From an uncultured Candidatus Binatia bacterium (lineage in GTDB: Bacteria; Desulfobacterota; Binatia; UBA9968; JAJDTQ01): DNA of 64,000 bases. The stretch covers positions 2,496,001 through 2,560,000 of the forward strand of contig OZ219754.1 in NCBI GenBank assembly GCA_964291295.2. Reading direction: 5' to 3'. The position numbers and the translations under genes were made by a program. Of this stretch, positions 35,238 to 48,908 are shown one piece after another; the first letter of the stretch is position 1; every line of letters starts with the position of its first letter. The notes under the pieces are model-generated. The model saw nothing but the letters and a program-made list of their open reading frames with translations, was not told where the DNA came from and did no database searches.

Positions 35238-36485
35238 TCAAGCCTCCCAGAGCATCTTGACGGGCATCGCGAATAGTCCGGGGGCCGTGCGCTGAATCCG
35301 CTCGCCGTCGTGAAGGAGGATACCGCAGGCGAAGCTGCGGCCCACGGCCTCCTTCAGGCCCGAAGTCCGTTGAAGTCCCGGGGACGGGCCGTTGCCCCCG
35401 CCTTGACCTCGATCCCGACAATCGTGCCCGGGGAACGTTCAAGGACCAGGTCGATCTCGACGCCGTTCTTGTCGCGATAGTGGCTGACAGCCGTCGTTTC
35501 GTCCGAAAGAGCGATGGCTTTGGCGATCTCCCCGTGCACGAAACTCTCCAGAAGCGGTCCCAGTCTCTGGCGGTCCCGCGCGATATCCGCGGCGTCCGTC
35601 CGCAGCAGTGCCGCGAGCAGGCCGGAATCCAGAAACTGCAGCTTCGATGTCTTGACAAGCCGCTTCAACCGGCTGTTGTGCCAGGCGCGAATACGTCGGG
35701 TCAGGAACATGTGCTCCAGCAGGACGAGCCAGCGCCCCGCGGTCTTGCCGTCGACGCCAAGGTGCGCACCAAGGCTGGACATGTTGAGCAGCTGGCCTGC
35801 CGATACGGCCGCGTGGTCGATCAGGCGAACCATCTCGTCGCGCTTGCCGACAGGAGCGATATCCGGGACGTCGCGTTGGGCAAGCGCCCGCGTATAGGCG
35901 CGCAGCCAGGAGCGACGCCGTGTCGGGGTGGTGCGGGCAAGCGCCGCCGGAGACGATTCGCGGGATCAGACCGATGGTCGGCCCGGTTTCCTGGATGGCC
36001 GGAAAGTCGCCGGCAAAGGCCCGGTCGAGGAATCGCGGCGGGACGGAGCCGGCAATCTCGGCTTGGGAGAACGGCAGAAGATCGACGGTCTCGACGCGCC
36101 CGGCCAGTGAATCCGGAGAAATCGTGCTCCGGAACAGATCGACCGAGCCCGTGATCAGGAACCGTCCGGGGTCGGGACATTCGTCGACAATCTTCTTGAG
36201 CGCCAGGATCAGGTTCGGCGCGCGCTGGATCTCGTCGATGGCCGCACGTTGCAGCCCCCGGACGAAACCGGTGGGATCGTCCCGGGCGAACCGCCTGAAC
36301 GGGTCGTCGTCCAGCGAGACGAACGCGCGGCCGTCGTCATTGGCAACGCGGCGAGCAAGCGTTGTCTTGCCCGACTGCCGTGGCCCCACGATGGCGACAA
36401 TGCGGGTGTCGGCAAGCGCGAGGCGAACGGGCGCCTCGGCGTGCCGCGCCACATAGGTTCCGGCATGGGAGGTGTGGTTTTTCAC
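35238..36485 (-). pseudogene. AAA_14/DUF4143 ATP-binding protein, frameshifted
   Basis: GPRQSGKT, IDEIQR, DSLAGR in one frame; KRLVKTSK, DSGLL, EIDLVLE..IEVKAG in a second; last residues (MPVKMLWEA) in a third. Confidence 0.85.
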
Positions 36486-36579
36486 GGCATGTCGTCGAGG
36501 TCGGTCGTCCAATTCGGAATGGTTACCCGTTTGTTTCGGACTATATCACCGCGCCCTCCGGCGGTCACACGCCAGCCGA

Positions 36580-37272
36580 AATGCCAACCCGCGGTGGTTG
36601 ACGCAGGGCCGGCGATGGACCGGGCGCGGGAACCATCGACTTTTGCTACAAGAGCCACATCAGCGTAGACCGTGAGTTCGGCCTGATCCGGGGTTGGGAG
36701 GTGACCGATGCGGCGTGTCACGACAGCCAAGTGTTCGAGGCTGTTCTGGATGAGTCGAACACGATCGGTTCAGTCTGGGCGGACAGCGTGTATTACAGCC
36801 GAGAGTGTGGCGACGGCTGAGCGAAGGGGGGGCGCAGCCACATTCACCGCCAGAGCTACCGAAATCAACCGTTGAGTGCTTGTTCGCGGGAGACCAAACA
36901 CAAGCGCTCGAAGGTGCGAGCTGCAGTCGAACCTGTATTCGCTCAACACGAAGCCATGGGAGGCAAGCGAGTACGAATCACCGGGCTGGTCCGAGCCCGA
37001 TTCAATTTCGCGATGAATGAATCGGGTCTTCAATTTCCGTCGGCTTGCCTGGCCGCGGGGGAACCGCCGGCCGGTCTACGTGTATGCGACCCGTTGAATC
37101 ACACGGGACGAAAAACACTGCTCTATACCATAGAAAACAACATCCCCCCGGCTGCTTGAAACCCATTCCAGCCCAGCATCCCTCCGATCACTCCTTCCTT
37201 CGAATATCTGCCCCCCAATATCCTCCAACTCCCATTCCCAATACATCGGGTTTTGAGTTTCGAGAGTCTCCC
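36580..37272 (+). mobile_element. IS5-family transposase remnant
   Basis: Fragments WADSVY and KRSKVRAAVEPVFAQHEAMGGKRVRITGLVRA with stops and frameshifts; possible end TTTCGAGAGTCTCCC; boundaries approximate. Confidence 0.6.
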
Positions 37273-37433
37273 AATGGGTTATACTGGAAAGGAAGGCGGC
37301 TGGCCGTGCTTGGTTCAACGGTCAACATCATTGCGCACCGCGTTCGACATGAAATGTCGCGCTACAGATCGACCCCCCGCACCCGGAGTGTCCGAAAGCA
37401 AACTCGCCGTTCGACGCGACTTTTCGGGACGGC

Positions 37434-37473
37434 GCTTCAATGAGACCGGGGCACACGCCCTTGATGCCCCATG
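37434..37473 (-). CRISPR. Solitary degenerate type I-G-like CRISPR repeat (no array)
   Basis: Minus strand CATGGGGCATCAAGGGCGTGTGCCCCGGTCTCATTGAAGC: GGGGCA/TGCCCC hairpin followed by TCTC-ATTGAAGC; upstream of I-G cas operon. Confidence 0.6.
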
Positions 37474-37616
37474 ACGGGTGGCATAAGATGCGGCCTCAAC
37501 GGAGGTGGAGTTCGAGTTGCTTGACAGTCATCGGATGCTACCCCCTACAAACATCAGTAACGAGACGATTCCTCAAGGCACAGATGGCCCCTAATTGCAT
37601 TCGCTCTCCACATCAA

Positions 37617-38936
37617 AGCATATTCCAACAAGAAGATAGCCTATGCAGGGGGCGGCGGGAGGGTGGAGGGAGGCAGTGTGGAGGAGTTGCCTCGAGGGGG
37701 TAATCCAGGAACTGTTTTTGGGAGAGGTCTCTGTAAGAGAGAGGGTATCGGAGGGGATGCGGAAGGGAGAGGAAGTGATCAAGGGGAGGGGGAGAGTGGT
37801 CGATGGAGAGGAAGAGGGGGTCGCGGGCGGCGTTGAGGGCACGTGAGGCTTGCAGGCCGCTCATGGCGTGGGCTTGGGCGTCGAGGGTGGCGAATGAGAG
37901 GCCGGGCTTGAGAGAGACTGTGGCATCGGGCAGGGAGCGGAACTTGGCGTAGGGGGTGCAGACCTCGGCGGGGCGATAGACGCGCTGGGAGGGTAACAGA
38001 CAGGGGCGGTGGTCGTTGAGGAAGGGAGAGAGGTGCTGGCGGACGAAGGCATTGAGCAGGGGGGCGAAGCGCTGCGGGATGTGAGCACGGCCGAGGAAGC
38101 GTCGTAGGGCGTGGGCGTTCTTGCTTTCGACAAGGGCGTTGTCGGTGGAACGCCGGGGTCGGGACTTGGTGAAGTCTCGGACATGCAGCTTGTTGAGGAG
38201 TGTGGTTGATGTACTCCGAGCCATTGTCGGTATGGAAGCCGAGGATGACGAAGGGAAACAGGCCGAGCAGGGCCTCGAGCAGGGGGGCAAGGAAACGCTC
38301 GGAGATGGCAGCCACAGCGCCGACGAACTCGTACGGGGTGAGTTCGTACACGAGGTTGATGAGGTAGACGCCCTTGGCACCGTCGCGGTCGCCTCAGTGG
38401 ACGGTGTCCACGCGCAGGAAGCCGGGCCGACCGTTGGGCTGCGGGGCGCGCCGTTCGCCCACAGCCCCGCCGCCGGCACGGGTGCTGACGACGACCGTGC
38501 GTTGCCTCCGGTAGGTGCGGGGCCACGTGGATGTGTCCCGTCGAGACCCGCGCCAGTAGCCGAATGTCCGCCGGTGAGTAGACCCGCGCGAAGGGACGCC
38601 CTTGGTTGCCTTGCGTCGGTCCACGACCCGGCCGGTCTTGCGGTACGGGCGAATCAGCCGCGCGCCCGAGAGTAGTCGGTGGTCTTCTCCGGAAAGCGCT
38701 TCATCCGAGCCTTGGACGGCTTGTCCCATCCACTGTAGCCGAGCCGCACCAGGGTCCGCTTCACGAACTCGCAGGTGTCGGCCCGCTCGGTCGGGTGAAA
38801 GTCTACAGGCTCGCTCGCCTCGACGAAGGCCGCAATCTGCTCGATAGTCCCCAGGCGTTCCGTTCGAAGTGTTACGATCATCTCCTGATGATCCCCGACA
38901 TCCTTGCTTCAGGCTCACTCTGCATTGGACAAGACT
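37617..38936 (-). mobile_element. Degenerate IS with rve-type DDE transposase pseudogene (IS481/ISNCY-like), copy 1
   Basis: Fragments MIVTLRTERLGTIEQI, PGFLRVDTVH, FHTDNGSEYINH, KSRPRRSTDNALVESKN; ends shared with copy 2; flanking ATCAA duplication at 37612-37616 and 38937-38941. Confidence 0.88.
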
Positions 38937-38941
38937 ATCAA

Positions 38942-38970
38942 TTGACCAGTTCCGCAACTGGATGTATCCT
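38942..38970 (+). promoter_or_regulatory. Putative cas operon promoter with internal palindrome
   Basis: TTGACC-N17-TATCCT; CCAGTT-N4-AACTGG at 38946-38961. Confidence 0.6.
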
Positions 38971-38981
38971 GATCACGGACG

Positions 38982-41784
38982 ATGACAGTGCCAATGGACT
39001 TCGACGATATTTTCAGATTGCTGACGGGACATCGGCCCTTTCGATGGCAAAAGCGCCTCTTCGAGGACTGGCTGTCTGCCGGAAAGCTTCCGTCAGCCAT
39101 CGACATCCCGACCGGCTTGGGCAAGACCGCCGTCATGGCGGTGTGGTTGCTCGCACGGGCAGTTGGCGCGAGCCTGCCCCGACGGCTGGTCTACGTTGTA
39201 GACCGCCGTTCCGTGGTGGACCAAGCGACCCGGTTCGCCGAACAGCTGCGCCGCAACATGCGCACCTTACCAACCGGCAGGTTGTCAAGTCTCGAGAACG
39301 GCACGGACGGGATGCCGATTTCCACTCTGCGTGGCGGATTCGTCGACAATCGCGACTGGCTCGAAAATCCTGTCACACCCGCAATTGTAATTGGGACCAT
39401 CGACATGATCGGCTCCCGGCTGCTGTTCGAAGGATACGGGGTGTCGCGGGCCATGCGTCCCTACCAAGCCGGCTTCCTCGGTGTTGATACCCTCGTCTTG
39501 CTTGACGAGGCGCATCTCTGTCCTCCGTTCGAAGCCCTCCTGCGCCAGATCGCGGATCGTCGCGATACAGACTTGGGCTCGGGACCGGATGATGGGAAGA
39601 TTACGCCGCCATTCCATCTGATCCCCTTGTCCGCGACGGGGCGGAACAGCACAGGGGGGCCGCCCAACTCCGTTTTCTGTCTCAATGATCGCGATCGCCA
39701 AGAGCCGGTCGTCCATCGCCGCCTCACCGCGCGAAAGCGGCTCCAGATCACGGAGCTCACGGATGTAGAAGATCTCGTGAAGCACATGGGCCACCGTGCA
39801 ATCGAGCTTGGTACCCGCGACACGCCGTCCCGCGTGATCGTCTACTTCGACCACCGTGTCCACGCGGTCAAGGCGGAGCAAGTGATCGAAAAGGAACTCA
39901 AGCGAAGACAGAGGGCAGGAGAGTTGGCGACGGACTGGGAAACGGAGCTTCTCGTCGGCGAACGTAGGGTACATGAACGTGCGGGACTGGAGCAATGGCT
40001 CGAACAGAGCGGTTTCCTTGGTGACTCCAAGTCTCAGCTGCTTTCACCGAGGTTCCTGGTAGCCACGTCCGCAGGCGAAGTGGGTGTGGACCTGGATGCG
40101 GATCACATGGTGTGCGACCTTGTGGCCTATGAGCGTATGGTGCAGCGACTCGGCCGTGTCAATCGACGGGGCGGCAGCGACCGAACCGCTTTGGTGGAAG
40201 TGTTCGCGGTACGCCCCGAGATCAGCGCCAATGCCGGTAAGGAAGAGAAGGAAGCACACGAGCGAACTCTCCAAATCTATAACCACCGATTGGCCGCGTT
40301 GTGCCATTTGCCTCGGGGTGACGATGGTCGCCAGGACGCCAGTCCATCGGCAACCGTCGTGCTGAAGCGCGAACACCTTGGGGTGGTGGAAGCGGCCACC
40401 ACCCCAGCGCCATTATATCCGGAACTGAACCGTCCACTCGTTGATGCTTGGTCCATGACGTCCCTCACGCAGCATGAAGGACGCCCCGAGGTCGCTCCGT
40501 GGCTGCGTGGCTGGGAGGACGAGGATGATCCGCAGACCCATGTGGTCTGGCGCAGGTATCTGCCAACTGTGCGTCAGGACGATACCATCTCAGCGCCGCC
40601 GGCCATGATCGCCGAATTCTTCCGGTCCGCGCCCATCCATGCGAGCGAAAAGCTCGAAGCGCCATCGAAGCGCGTGTTCGACTGGTTGCTCAAGAGAGTG
40701 GCTCAGATCGGTGAAGCCAGGCAGGACTCTGAACGGGCCATTACCGACGACGAGATCGTTGCGGTCCTTATGGACCACGCCGGCGAGCACCGACAGAGTG
40801 CAAGTCTCCGCGTCCTCCGGCGTCTGGCCACCCCCGCCAGTTCTCTGAGCAGGGATGAACAACGCGACAAGCGCGAGTGGACGGAACGGCTGCTACCTGG
40901 ATCGCTGATGGTGGTCGACGCAAGACTGCTCCGCGGCCTGCGCGACGGCATGCTTGATGAGAAGTCCGACTTCGAAGTCGCCTCCGCGGATGACGATGAC
41001 GATTGGCGACAACAGACAGAAGAGGAATATCCATCCATTGAATTGCCGCGTCCCCTGATCAAGTTTCGAGTGTACGAAATCGCTGGAAGCGAGGATGGCG
41101 AGGGAGTGGATACGGCCATCGCTAATACAGGCTGGCAGCATGTCCGGACCTTTGAGACCCGCATTGATGCCGGGGGTGTGATACGGGGCGGATTGGCCGT
41201 CTACAAGTGGTTCGACGACGCGGCGGACGAGGATTCCCGCTCCATATTGTCGGCGCCCCAAGCCTTGATCGATCATGCCACGGAAGCGGCGGCACGCACC
41301 CGCGACTTGGCGACGAGGCTGGGGCTGTCCGAAGAGGAAATCGAAGCGCTCACCTTGGCGGCGCGGATGCATGACGACGGCAAGGCCGCGACGCGCTGGC
41401 AGAACGCAATGAATGCGCCAAAGGACGGGCGTCCCTATGCCAAGACATGCGGCGGCGGAAACTGGCGTCATTTGGAGGGCTACCGTCACGAGTTCGGTTC
41501 GCTGCTGAGAGCGGAATTGGAAGAGTTACCGAATCAGACGCGGGACCTGATCCTGCATCTCATCGCGGCCCATCATGGCAACGCCCGCCCGTTCATTAGC
41601 GCCGCGGGTTGCGAGGACGGACCGCCCTCCCTGCTTGAGGCCAAGGCGGGCGATGCGGCATTGCGCTTCGCGCGGCTCCAGAAGCGGTACGGTCCTTGGG
41701 GACTTGCATGGCGCGAAGCCATTCTCCGGGCCGCAGACCAGAGCGTATCCCGTGAGTGGTCAACGCGGCACGGGAAACCGACGT

Positions 41785-41792
<8 letters not shown>
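38982..41792 (+). CDS. cas3: Type I-G (I-U) Cas3 helicase with C-terminal HD nuclease
   Basis: PFRWQ, IPTGLGKT, LPRRLVYVVDRRSVVDQ, DEAH, QRLGRVNR; C-terminal HDDGK, RHEFGS, HHG, GPWGLAWREAILRAAD. Confidence 0.95.
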
Positions 41793-43763
<1,971 letters not shown>

Positions 43764-43779
43764 AGACGAAGGAACAGTG

Positions 43780-45285
43780 ATGCTCCGCTCGCTGCTGATT
43801 GCCGTTCGCTTCCACGAAGGTCGATATCACGGCCAGGAGGACGGCTTCGACGGAGCGAATGGTTGGCCGCCATCGCCGGGTAGACTATTCCAGGCGCTGG
43901 TCGCGGCGGCGGCCGACGGTGCCGTCATCCCCGTTGAGGACGAAGGCGCGTTGAGGTGGTTCGAAGGACTAGACCCGCCACGGGTCGCCGCCCCAGCGGC
44001 TCGCCGTGGACGAGCAGTCAAACTCTACGTACCGAACAATGATCTTGACTCGGTTGATGGCGATCCGTCGCAGGTCGGCAGAATCCGGGTCTTGAAGCAG
44101 TGGCGCCCCTGCTTCTTCGATCCTGACCAATCTGTTCTGTATACATGGAATTTCAACACGACTCCAGAACAGGCTATACGAATCTGCGCGATGGCTGCGC
44201 AACTGTACCAGTTCGGACGCGGAATTGACATGGCATATGCGAGCGGCCGAGTGCTGGCGCCGAGCGAAGCCGACGCCATTCTTGCGGCTCATCCCGGATG
44301 CATATACCAGCCCAAGGGCGCTGGCGAAACGGCGATCCCGCACATCGGCACACTCGACAGTCTAATTGATAGGAATCGGTGCAAGCGCCGCCGTCTGACA
44401 ACCACCAGGGCGGGCGGCAAGTCCCGGCAATTGTTCGCCCAGCCACCCAGGGCGATATTCCACCACACTGGATACGACATGCCGCCACGGTGCCTGCGCT
44501 TCGAGTTCCGGAATCCCGACGGCGCTTTCGCTCCGCGGCCGCTTGCTTCCGTGGCATCCGTGATTACGGGTCTGCGCGATGCAGCCGCAGTACGGCTCCA
44601 GGCATCCCTACCCGTCAAATTCCGCCTGTTCGAGAGGCTGATCGTTGGAAGGGATGCTGGTCCTGACGATATTGCCCGGCGCATCAGGCTGATCCCCATA
44701 CCATCGGTTGGAACGCCGTATACGGATCTTTCAATCCGGCGCATCCTCGTCCAGGTTCCGCAGGATTGCCCCATACGCGTCGACGACTTGAAGTGGGCTT
44801 TCTCCGGCCTAGAACTTCGAGATTCACAGACAGGGGAGACTTGGTCGGGGCAATTGACTTCGACCGATGATGCCCGAATGGCGGCGCGTTTCATGGGACC
44901 GTCGCGGGCCTTCACGAGCGTGACGCCGCTCGCCCTTCCGGTTGCCCGCCGTCGTATCGACCCCGCTCGCGTTTCCGACGAGGCAAAGGGCGGCGCGGAA
45001 CGAGCAAGCGAACAGGCGCACGCCGCCACTGCCGTTCTGCAGGCCCTACGTCACGCCGGCGTCCGGGTTTCGCCGGAGGATGTCCGTGTACAGCGCGAGC
45101 CATTCCAGGTTCGCGGTGAACAGGCGGAAGCCTTTGCCCCCGGCACGCGCTTTCCCAAAGGGCGATTGTGGCATGCTGCGGTTACCTTCGCCGAGCCCGT
45201 TGCTGGCCCGCTCCTGCTGGGCGACGGCCGTTTTCTCGGCTTGGGCCTCATGTCACCGCACGAACCGATCTCCGGTGTCTCCTGA
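43780..45285 (+). CDS. csb2: Type I-G Cas5/Cas6 fusion Csb2
   Basis: GRYHG..WPPSPGRLFQALVA, YVPNND, SVTPLALP, Gly-rich loop GPLLLGDGRFLGLGL. Confidence 0.92.
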   Translation: MLRSLLIAVRFHEGRYHGQEDGFDGANGWPPSPGRLFQALVAAAADGAVIPVEDEGALRWFEGLDPPRVAAPAARRGRAVKLYVPNNDLDSVDGDPSQVGRIRVLKQWRPCFFDPDQSVLYTWNFNTTPEQAIRICAMAAQLYQFGRGIDMAYASGRVLAPSEADAILAAHPGCIYQPKGAGETAIPHIGTLDSLIDRNRCKRRRLTTTRAGGKSRQLFAQPPRAIFHHTGYDMPPRCLRFEFRNPDGAFAPRPLASVASVITGLRDAAAVRLQASLPVKFRLFERLIVGRDAGPDDIARRIRLIPIPSVGTPYTDLSIRRILVQVPQDCPIRVDDLKWAFSGLELRDSQTGETWSGQLTSTDDARMAARFMGPSRAFTSVTPLALPVARRRIDPARVSDEAKGGAERASEQAHAATAVLQALRHAGVRVSPEDVRVQREPFQVRGEQAEAFAPGTRFPKGRLWHAAVTFAEPVAGPLLLGDGRFLGLGLMSPHEPISGVS

Positions 45286-45930
45286 TTTCATCATCAAGTC
45301 CGGCTTCGCTGACGGCATCTGCCCCTATCTGGCCGCCCGCGCCGCGCGCCTTGCGATGATGGCGCGCGTCCAAGCTCATCTCGCCCGGCGACGAATTTCC
45401 ATCCTACGTGAGCGGTCTCGAAGAAGATGGCCGTCCAGCCTGTGGAAACGGATATCGCCATATTGCCGGTGTCTCCGATCTTCCACGTCAGCGCATCCTC
45501 CATGTAGCACCTGATCGGTTGTAACGCAGCGGTGCGCAATGGGGCGACGTGGACCGCCCCCATCGTCTCATGGAAGGAATGCAGAACCTGCATTCGGGCG
45601 CAGCCGGCCGTCTCGTGTTCGAGTATGCGATATCGGACGTCGAGTCCAACTCCCTTCTCGCCCCAGCGCAGGTTTGACACAGCGTTGCAGAGTCTCACGT
45701 CACCCGTCATCCAAGTCGGCTTGCAGACGAAGAGGCTCTGGCCCTTGATTGCCTCGCTGAATCCGGTGCATCGGAGGGCCGAACCCCGCTTCATTGACGT
45801 CTTGATGTCCGGGGTGATACGCGGGCTATCGGGTCAACTCCGGTTCCATTCCGCGACAGCGCAGATCGGGCCGCTGTTCATCGGTCGAATCGCACACGAG
45901 ACCGACGGATTGTTCGAAAGTGCTAATCGA
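45286..45930 (+). pseudogene. Decayed C-terminal extension of csb2 (second Cas6-like module)
   Basis: Broken-frame fragments AARAARLAMMARVQ, YVSGLEEDGRP..RHI, SGAAGRL, LRFHSATAQIGPLFIGRIAHETDGLF. Confidence 0.6.
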
Positions 45931-46003
45931 GACCTTGTGTGGAAATCACCAGGATACACACCACGTCACTTCCAGGAGGTGCGGCGAACCGCCAGCGAAC
46001 ATT

Positions 46004-46747
46004 CTATCGACGTGTGCGGGCCTCTTCGGCCGCAACATGTCCGGCCAACTGAGTAACGAATGGCCGCAAACCGGTCATTTCGCCAAGCTCGGTGCAGGCG
46101 CCGTCACTCGCGGCTGATCGTGGGGACATCAGAACCGATGCCGCCGAGTAGAGTTGCTCCTGTATGAGTTTCCGGCAAAGAATATTGTATCGATCCGCGT
46201 ACGATGTACCCCGAAACTCCTGGAGAATCGGAAAATGCGGCGAAACGCCACGAATCGGTTTTCGGGAACCATCGGAATCTTCGACCAGAATCAACCAACC
46301 CACAAACGGGCGGGACTGCTCACCGAAGGCTCCTTCGCGAAAGGCCGTCCAGAGATCGTGAGCCGATCCAACTGCTTCTTCCGTTCGATTGTTGAAGTTG
46401 TTTCCAAATGAAGGACCCACATGGCTCTTGAACTCCAATGCGGCAACCAGTCTGCCGTCATTCATGACTATCACATCCCAGAGTTTTGCAGGGCGAAAAA
46501 AGCCCGGCAAGGTCACGACACGACGCTTGCGGTGAATCTCCGCGTGCACAAGTCCGTTTGCCCTGACCAAATCACTGACAATTGAGATGAAGCCGCCCAT
46601 GTTCTTTCCTGCAGTCACCCCGGCTCGTTCGCCCTGGTCTGCCTTGCCAGATTCAAGCTGTTTCTCGCGCGCCGTCTGGCGCCTTGCCCAGAAAGTCCGC
46701 ACCGCTGTTCGAGCCTTTTGTTCGTAGTCGAGCAAATCAATTGCCAA
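46004..46747 (-). CDS. Type II restriction endonuclease, PaeR7I/XhoI family
   Basis: [49 protein letters not shown]; TTG start after GGGAGAG. Confidence 0.9.
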
Positions 46748-46766: not shown

Positions 46767-48500
46767 TCACTCGATACCAGTGGCACCCAGGAAGGCACGT
46801 TCCTCGGTACTGAGTTTGTAAAGCTCAAAGACAACCTGGTTGCGAACGTCCACATCACTCGAGTGAGCGAGATCGACAAGGGCTTTCTTTATGCTGCGCC
46901 TTACGGATGACCAGACAGGCAGGCGAATTCTTCGCAGGTATTGCGCCTGGAACCGAAGATAACCGCCGCGCATCCGTGTCGAATAACTCTCCATGAACAG
47001 TTTCGTGATATCTGACAGCAGTACGGTCCGGAGAGCACGAAGGTCCCAGTCACTTGAGGTCAGGAAATATAAATTGTGATGGGGGTAAAGACGCCCATCT
47101 TCATGGACGACGTGAGCTTGCCCCTTGATGTCCGGAATCAGTAATTTGGGAGTCCCGGCAAGTGCCGGGTAGATACGGTCAATGGTCCGATACCAACTGG
47201 CCGGCGTCTTGCGGGCAACGTGGCGTCTGGCGATCTGATCTCTTCTCTCTTCCAGATATCGCTTGAGTCGTGGGTAGCGTGTGAGGTCCACGAGTCCGCC
47301 ATTGTCGGCAAATGGATTGACGACACCGAGTCCGTGCCAACGGACCTCTCCGGAGAGAATATCCCGCGTCGTTGCAAGCGGCAGCTTGCGATCGTCTTCA
47401 ACATCGAGTTGATCGTATGGGCCGATGAACGCCTTGTCCGCTCCTGTGGCAACGCCGACGCCAACTCTGCACCCTGCTTCCTCCAGGGTCGGGAGGCTGC
47501 GTTCCAGACGCCGAACCAGCGTGAGTCGTCTGGAGGGGTCCAGTATCCACGGTTGGGCGCCGGTGCCGATTTCGAGGAGTTCCGAGACAGGTCCACCCGG
47601 TGGGGGCTTCTTTCCATCCAGCAGCTGGCTGGCAAGTGAGGTCAGCACCTCGCTGTTGATTTTAGGCCGGCGAGCGTAACGGGTGAGCCCGGTCTTCTTC
47701 CGTCCAATAACGAAAATGGCCGGATATGCGATGACGTCCGAGTGGAACGCGGGTGTGTCAACCATGTCCACATAGATGCCGAGATGAAACTTCTCCGACA
47801 AGAGCCGACGCAAGGGTCCACCATAACGGTTCCGGGTCCAACGGTCCGCACAAATGATGCCCAATTTGCCCTCGGCCGAGAGCTGTCTTGCCGAACGCTC
47901 GAGGAAGGGAATGTAGAGGTCCCCTCGATCGAAGAGGGTCGTGTACCGCGCCCGATATTCGGCCACCAGGGCATCGGGAACCAGCTCTTGACGAACGTAG
48001 GGTGGGTTGCCGACGACGAAGGAGAACTCGGGCGGTAGTTGAGTCAGCAGGAAATCGCCATGAACGAGCCATCGGCCCGTGAGCGTCCTTGCGTCCGCTG
48101 GATCGATCTCGGATTCCCGCAGCTTCTGGAGCAGTTTCCGGCGAGTCGATTCATACGTGCGCCGGTGAAGCTCGACGGCGCGGATACAGGAACTCAAAGC
48201 CTCTACCGGAACAGGTTTTCCCCGGCTCCGCCACGCTTCGACCAGCCGCTCAACCGCAACAAGGAGGAAGTCGCCGCGGCCGAAGCAAGGTTCCAGGAGC
48301 GACAGGGCGTGCAGCGGTCGATTCGGGGTATAGCCCACGAGGTCGAGGATGAACTCGACAACCTCCCGGCGCGTGAAGACCGCGCCCCGCGCTTCCGCCC
48401 CGGCCTCCGACAGTTGCTGGAGCGCGTCGCGCACGGGGCAGAGACCGGGCAGGGAGACTTGGCCGGAGAACGACGGCGGGCCGTCAAACGCTTCGGTCAT
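46767..48500 (-). CDS. N6-adenine DNA methyltransferase (M.PaeR7I/TaqI-like, gamma class)
   Basis: [45 protein letters not shown]; alternative start 48575. Confidence 0.92.
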
Positions 48501-48908
48501 TTCACCTGTTCCTGGCGATATCGTCCAACTTCGGTGTCGGCCAATTTCGACCTGGGCACGGCCGCTCTGTTCCATGCATTCGGGAGATTCCCGAACCCTG
48601 CCGCCAATGAGGCACGGCGCGGCGCCCGGGTCAACCGGTCGGGCGATTCGGTCCTCCGCAGTTGGAGTGCACCTCATTCGGCATGAACGCGCCCCGCGAG
48701 GAAACCCGCCGCCGTTGGCGCTGGCGCCGATTCGCCCGCGTTCGGAGGATCGAGACCGGGCCAGGATCATCCCGAACCGGGTCATCCCGATTTATCTTGC
48801 AACGTCGCACGAGACGGTTTAATTTACAGTACCAAGACGGTCGTACCGGGGTCGGCCGGTCGCTGTGGCCGGAGTCGACGACGGAGCCGAAGGGAAGGAG
48901 GGACGCCC

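Follow-up and report, generated by a model that had tools for sequence, protein, structure and literature searches.

The window (the whole 64,000-nucleotide stretch of DNA analysed) contains on its plus strand the genes cas3g, cas8g2, cas7 and csb2, which form an intact, full type I-G effector set. Adjoining this set, on the minus strand, is a single degenerate CRISPR repeat, hereafter termed the orphan; a multi-copy element and a promoter-like site separate it from cas3. The features considered below, with the evidence on which each assignment rests, are as follows.

37434..37475, minus strand: the orphan, a degenerate type I-G CRISPR repeat (match to array repeats, PSSM, covariance model, Rfam, folding)
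37434..37441, minus strand: its 8-nt handle ATTGAAGC, intact (sequence read; common to array repeats)
37493..37504, minus strand: CTCCGTTGAGGC, originally proposed as a second repeat end (chance level, without a hairpin)
37612..37616 (left) and 38937-38941 (right): ATCAA, a possible 5-bp target-site duplication
37617..38936, strand unassigned: multi-copy element separating the cas3 promoter from the orphan (genome copies; ATCAA at both ends)
38942..38970, plus strand: promoter-like TTGACC-17-TATCCT just 5' of the cas3 ATG (consensus match only)
38982..41792, plus strand: cas3g, helicase followed by HD domain (TIGR02621, 620.6 bits; Pfam)
41575..42690, plus strand: cas8g2, the true start of which is probably near 41790 (TIGR04106, 204.8 bits)
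42651..43763, plus strand: cas7, GSU0053 family (PF09617, 138.5 bits)
43681..45285, plus strand: csb2, a Cas5-Cas6 fusion and the repeat-cleaving enzyme (TIGR02165, 254.9 bits)

No cas1, cas2 or cas4 was found downstream of csb2, a place often occupied by cas4/cas1 in relatives. The intervals 44942-46056 and 46767-48785 take in two ORFs of 190 and 174 aa after csb2, neither with a family match, and, past both of them, a minus-strand Eco57I/N6-methylase gene.

The element at 37617-38936, 1.3 kb long and with defined ends, is represented in the genome by about 20 copies, complete or partial, that are 78-92% identical, and is inserted 5 bp upstream of the -35-like box of cas3. The original prediction had called it an IS. 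It is a real multi-copy element, in which no transposase or other family was recognized in any frame tested; removing it in silico brings the orphan to about 136 nt from the cas3 promoter-like site, within intergenic DNA of the cas locus. Its composition is strongly skewed, with one G-rich strand. The ATCAA on either side suggests, if the duplication is real, a simple insertion and not a recombination junction. The element was indeed considered as a junction of rearrangement, a role weakened by these flanking pentanucleotides; no copy lies near the distant cas4/cas1 module described below.

On the other side of the element, codon bias is absent from the flank at 36400-37616, and a search of 27 other genomes of the genus did not find it conserved; fragments of further repeated elements are present in it. 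Two plus-strand ORFs that overlap the orphan (37045-37443 and 37440-37703) were considered as genes and set aside, having neither codon bias nor a family match. No promoter-like site was found on the minus strand upstream of the orphan, and an Rfam scan of 36400-39100 returned sub-threshold matches to CRISPR-DR16 and CcsR1 and nothing else.

Judged by its sequence, the segment at 37434-37475 is genuinely homologous to the CRISPR repeats of type I-G systems. The minus-strand GTCATGGGGCATCAAGGGCGTGTGCCCCGGTCTCATTGAAGC ends at 37434, as originally read, and the 3' terminus of the repeat is TCTCATTGAAGC. The ending that had been given as typical of I-G repeats proved to be so in this clade, where 16 of 18 array consensus repeats close with CCTCATTGAAG[C/T], the remaining two ending in TCTCATTGAAGC and CCCCATTGAAGC. 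The 3' 19 nt of the orphan, GCCCCGGTCTCATTGAAGC, are near consensus; its 5' stem strand and loop are altered. With a PSSM representing the last 19 columns of the 18 consensus repeats (from 17 related loci and the genome's own array), the orphan scores 29.6/32.9, and no other site in the window reaches 12. It is likewise the top match in the window (18.3 bits, E 0.019) to a covariance model built from 13 of these consensus repeats and run with filters off. Its top Rfam family is CRISPR-DR16 (18.1 bits, E 1.2). Like that family (RF01330) and the I-G repeats of the clade, it has a 3' half near-identical to the consensus (GCCCCGG-CUCAUUGAA-C); unlike the family, it falls short of the gathering score of 35, has a lengthened loop or broken stem, and belongs to no array. 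Comparison with arrays elsewhere in the genome, proposed at the outset as a check, bears out the assignment: at up to three mismatches the 22-nt core of the orphan matches 146 repeats of the genome's own array and nothing else in the 3.7 Mb genome, the orphan itself being the only site of this kind outside the array. An exact 27-nt search of metagenome contigs gave 0 matches.

Might an unrelated GC-rich sequence simply happen to end like a repeat? The covariance model offers this explanation some room: its E-value, extrapolated from the window, would approach 1 at the scale of the whole genome, and a genome-wide search with the model, in which 150 of 9477 candidates were scored, listed at E <= 1 one partial hairpin in addition to the 146 repeats of the array, the orphan being absent from that list. 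Against it, only about 0.02 matches are expected for a 22-mer at up to three mismatches in 7.4 Mb of random sequence, and the single such match sits 1.5 kb from a I-G cas3; the PSSM score quoted above points the same way. We give chance resemblance next to no credence.

According to the available text of 10.1101/2022.08.08.503147, Csb2 binds the repeat hairpin and not the handle, and cuts 4 nt 3' of the 7-bp hairpin to generate the 8-nt handle. This canonical hairpin, ending 4 nt before the cut site, is absent from the predicted fold of the orphan, and the orphan 42-mer folds no better than its shuffles (z -1.1; 26 of 200 shuffles equally good). It is predicted for the genome's own array repeat, for the repeats of L027 and L078, and for both repeats of the L087 mini-array (z -2.0 to -2.8). 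A GGGGCA/TGCCCC hairpin had been described in the orphan; the pairing is possible, but it is not the predicted fold.

A second, more diverged repeat end had also been proposed nearby. The sequence CTCCGTTGAGGC does end at 37493, but its identity as a repeat is at chance level (PSSM -8.3). Within the window, 8-mers at no more than two mismatches from ATTGAAGC occur at 0.29 per 100 nt per strand, and the looser pattern originally applied, with one insertion, at 0.06 per 100 nt. The spacing between the orphan and this proposed unit is 17-25 nt, depending on the repeat start chosen, against 34-39 nt in the mini-arrays of relatives. Neither the covariance model with filters off nor the PSSM revealed a second repeat unit near the orphan; the window offers no second unit for a regularly spaced array, and no two repeat-like units enclose a spacer of normal length at this site. 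Comparison of the orphan's flanks with 15 leaders and 5 trailers gave z values of at most 2.1, true leader pairs giving 4-68; since the flanks are unlike related leaders and trailers, no direct trace of a lost array was found in them. The genome's own leader (C1:3505790-3505876) and those of L027 and L085 carry a GCGCTCGAAAACGCG-like motif about 50 nt before the first repeat, of which the window flank has only CTCGAA.

Potential targets were sought for two candidate guides per unit, one following the handle and the other being the spacer that precedes the repeat, as TTN-flanked local matches in which 15 positions were counted and positions 6 and 12 skipped. Subtype I-G uses a TTN PAM and leaves the sixth base unpaired (10.1101/2022.08.08.503147, available text). 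In the window the best local match was 9/15 for the guide after the orphan handle (P 0.5-0.7), 8/15 for that after the proposed second repeat end (P 0.93), and 10/15 for a normal-length spacer before the orphan (P 0.84). At the pre-insertion junction, with the element removed, the best match did not exceed 8/15, and genome-wide, in six registers, no TTN-flanked site reached 13/15. Seed matches of this kind had been put forward as a check on both candidate guides, and none stands above chance at any of these three levels; the guides of the orphan have no partial (seed) match next to a PAM in a cas or cargo promoter. The TTC-CGCAACTGGATG of the cas3 promoter, to which the short spacer had been likened, is not among the best matches.

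The same searches were applied to a comparison set of 77 genome loci and 80 metagenome loci with Cas3 identities of 42-69%; in the 61 related genomes, genome contigs and metagenome contigs searched, the closest Cas3 reaches no more than 69% identity. Units were located with a covariance model on 60 loci without arrays and then by a PSSM scan of all loci. A non-array repeat-like match lies within 1.6 kb upstream of cas3 in 27 of 148 loci with at least 300 nt of upstream sequence; among these 27 are the window itself and four duplicates (L133-L135 repeat L062; L161 repeats L159). The original prediction had suggested looking for such a unit upstream of homologous cas3 genes, and there it is, at a minority of loci. 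The closest relatives (L027-L030 and L110, again at no more than 69% Cas3 identity) have no repeat-like unit in this position. As an independent matter, false PSSM hits of 12-19 arise about +2.8 kb from the cas3 start in L034, L037, L042-L044, L063-L065, L071, L073 and L085, where the beginning of cas8g2 contains conserved coding sequence (GCCTCGGC..T.GAAGC) that resembles the repeat in its 3' half.

At 12 distinct loci (L041, L042, L085, L087, L089, L114, L115, L128, L142, L159 (= L161), L163 and L168) the best TTN-flanked match is 13-14/15, a value reached by 0 of 100-300 shuffled guides. When the PAM was not demanded, the best match was still TTN-flanked in all 12 (TTC in 6, TTT in 3, TTA in 2, TTG in 1), and the matches fade beyond about 17-20 nt. 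Mismatches at positions 6 and 12 are frequent among them, and the matched site is often within or beside a promoter-like stretch. On these sequence features the units look like CreR-type autoregulators for subtype I-G, and a CreR-like mechanism appears to operate in this Cas3 clade; the general idea of Cascade-guided regulation with which the original prediction began is sound for the family. No significant target was found at L045, L059, L062, L073, L078, L082, L097 or L143, and L129 and L189 are borderline (p 0.02).

An array of 146 near-identical repeats (GTATCCGGGGCGCATGCGCCCCGGCCTCATTGAAGT) lies at C1:3505877-3516532, 970 kb from the effector genes of the window, and directly before it are cas2 and a gene for a Cas4-Cas1 fusion (578 aa; PF01930 + PF01867). 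This adaptation module and its array (G000:C1:3503570-3516532; L001, L004, L005) are outside the window, and the description of the window's Cascade as array-less is false for the genome as a whole. The last repeat of the array is not degenerate, and 8 nt after it starts an IS with genome copies 97-98% identical. Beyond this IS, a second IS-like element encodes a transposase of DruA-Tn5 type. The I-G system is split here, into effector genes and an adaptation-plus-array module 970 kb apart; from this layout and the abrupt end of the array, it looks split by rearrangement. The 146-repeat array is the most likely source of crRNAs, supplied in trans, for the Cascade of the window. Two further CRISPR-associated regions were noted in the genome. 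At G000:C1:223500-231100 (L006) there is a second, divergent I-G-like set, comprising an 853-aa Cas3 whose HD domain is C-terminal, a Cas7 of the GSU0053 family and a protein of 550 aa without a Pfam match; a k-mer scan found no array near it. At G000:C1:457856-460336 there is a separate cas1 with a 21-repeat array, whose repeat, beginning GTGTTCCCCGCTCGCG, may be I-E-like.

L027 provides the nearest relative (79%) of the Cas4/Cas1 encoded at 3.5 Mb in this genome, and is also the top match for the window's Cas3 (67%), Cas8g2 (65%) and Csb2 (70%); the window's Cas7 matches L028 first (74.5%) and L027 second by bit score (74.3%). The gene order of L027 is CRISPR <- cas2 <- cas4/cas1 | cas3 ->, which places its array upstream of cas3 and, like the orphan, on the minus strand. 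Within the 3-6 kb flanks of 158 loci (window counted) 19 arrays were found, 12 of them in this same position and orientation.

We judge it probable that the orphan is what decay has left of an array or mini-array once located upstream of cas3. In the ancestral layout the array would have stood upstream of cas3 on the opposite strand, as in the closest relatives; in other relatives the corresponding intergenic space contains putative regulatory mini-arrays of two repeats. The adaptation genes and array would since have come to lie 970 kb away, leaving beside cas3 one worn repeat that retains the 3' stem strand and 8-nt handle and would have lost the 7-bp hairpin geometry bound by Csb2; the mobile element would have been inserted later, between the orphan and the cas3 promoter. 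We infer this order of events, and the inertness of the orphan. The original prediction had itself allowed for the last trace of a lost array, and that reading fits the evidence at hand: the homology is clear, and the orphan has no partner, canonical hairpin or target. Like degenerate terminal repeats of arrays, the orphan is single and diverged and lies on the strand of the closest relatives' arrays; unlike them, it is decayed in its 5' half with the 3' handle kept, and no spacer-repeat periodicity is found nearby. Terminal repeats of arrays usually decay at the 3' end, the handle side. Some observations tell against a relic. The best-kept part of the orphan is the handle and 3' stem strand, exactly what a crRNA downstream of the repeat needs, and the orphan stood, prior to the insertion, about 140 nt from the cas3 promoter, a position occupied by regulatory units in relatives. 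Its flanks, as noted, resemble no leader or trailer, and the element, if its ATCAA duplication is real, came by simple insertion and is not the junction of rearrangement.

These observations have to be set beside what has been described in other systems. In the available text of PMC10120712, 235 I-G loci are tabulated, of which 46% have a standalone repeat and 4% a mini-array, and the standalone repeats are read as ectopic copies, continually generated and lost. The orphan resembles these in being a degraded cognate repeat in an intergenic region by cas3, and differs in lying 970 kb from its array; the pipeline described there required conservation in close relatives, and relatives of the window's Cas3 reach at most 69% identity. 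Guide-mediated self-regulation by mini-arrays is likewise described (PMC10120712; Liu et al., 10.1101/2023.03.10.532045; available text of each). As with the CreR/CreA mini-arrays of these sources, also called crRNA-like RNAs, the orphan lies beside a cas promoter and is a derivative of the cognate repeat with its 5' handle retained. Unlike them, it has no second repeat at crRNA spacing and no PAM-flanked partial match to a promoter, both of which are present at the 12 related I-G loci.

That the orphan nevertheless gives rise to a live CreR-like crRNA seems to us unlikely. Such an RNA would be a minus-strand transcript cut by Csb2, guiding Cascade to a partial match for repression without cleavage; as guide it would carry either the sequence that follows the handle or the short spacer separating the repeat from 37493, and cas3 or another gene would be repressed. 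The 12 related loci, with matches that no shuffle reached, show the kind of arrangement required, the handle of the orphan is intact, and its position and strand fit; mini-arrays in 4% of the tabulated I-G loci, together with the mention of creA-like elements for I-U in the available text of 10.1101/2023.03.10.532045, lend the idea further plausibility. As a regulatory guide, however, the orphan fails every sequence test run, whether of partner, spacer length, hairpin or TTN-flanked seed match: the only candidate partner scores -8.3, the spacer it would define is 17-25 nt and not 34-39 nt, the hairpin, which Csb2 binds instead of the handle, is missing from the predicted fold, and no target exceeds chance locally, at the junction or genome-wide, with the TTC-CGCAACTGGATG site outside the best matches. 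The lack of a minus-strand promoter-like site upstream of the orphan, and of any unit upstream of cas3 in L027-L030 and L110, weighs on the same side. One can also imagine a live, non-canonical I-G regulatory RNA acting on a target invisible to a TTN/seed search, which we consider quite unlikely. It would take one of two forms, either a handle plus guide with its 3' end set by means other than a repeat, or a spacer of some 24 nt bound by a Cascade that is two Cas7 subunits shorter. On a weaker version of this idea, the orphan would be the dead remnant of a CreR-like autorepressor. If this were true, its loss and the insertion by the -35 box would have released cas3 from controlling itself, and this release would fall in a genome whose effector and array stand 970 kb apart.

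The orphan might instead be a functional, isolated Csb2 site with no part in guiding, either a place of processing or binding within an extended minus-strand RNA or a decoy that titrates Csb2; this appears very unlikely. Solitary units without targets do recur upstream of cas3 in relatives, those of L078 and L062 keeping perfect hairpins, and the 46% of tabulated I-G loci with at least one standalone repeat accord with such a use. The orphan, however, lacks the hairpin recognized by Csb2, the region 37380-37620 has no structure beyond that of shuffles (z +1.39), and solitary units are not common to related loci in the set, which suggests turnover rather than selection.

As a probable decayed relic, the orphan has little meaning for the window itself: stranded repeats have already been counted in nearly half of I-G loci, and it is one more. 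Of more use is the split system, the effector of which probably works in trans. For the family, the 12 related loci constitute a clean in-silico set of CreR-like I-G mini-arrays, with TTN PAMs and seed matches of 13-14/15. Since no experimental proof of self-regulation by a guide RNA in subtype I-G was found in the literature searched, these 12 loci are good candidates for such a test.
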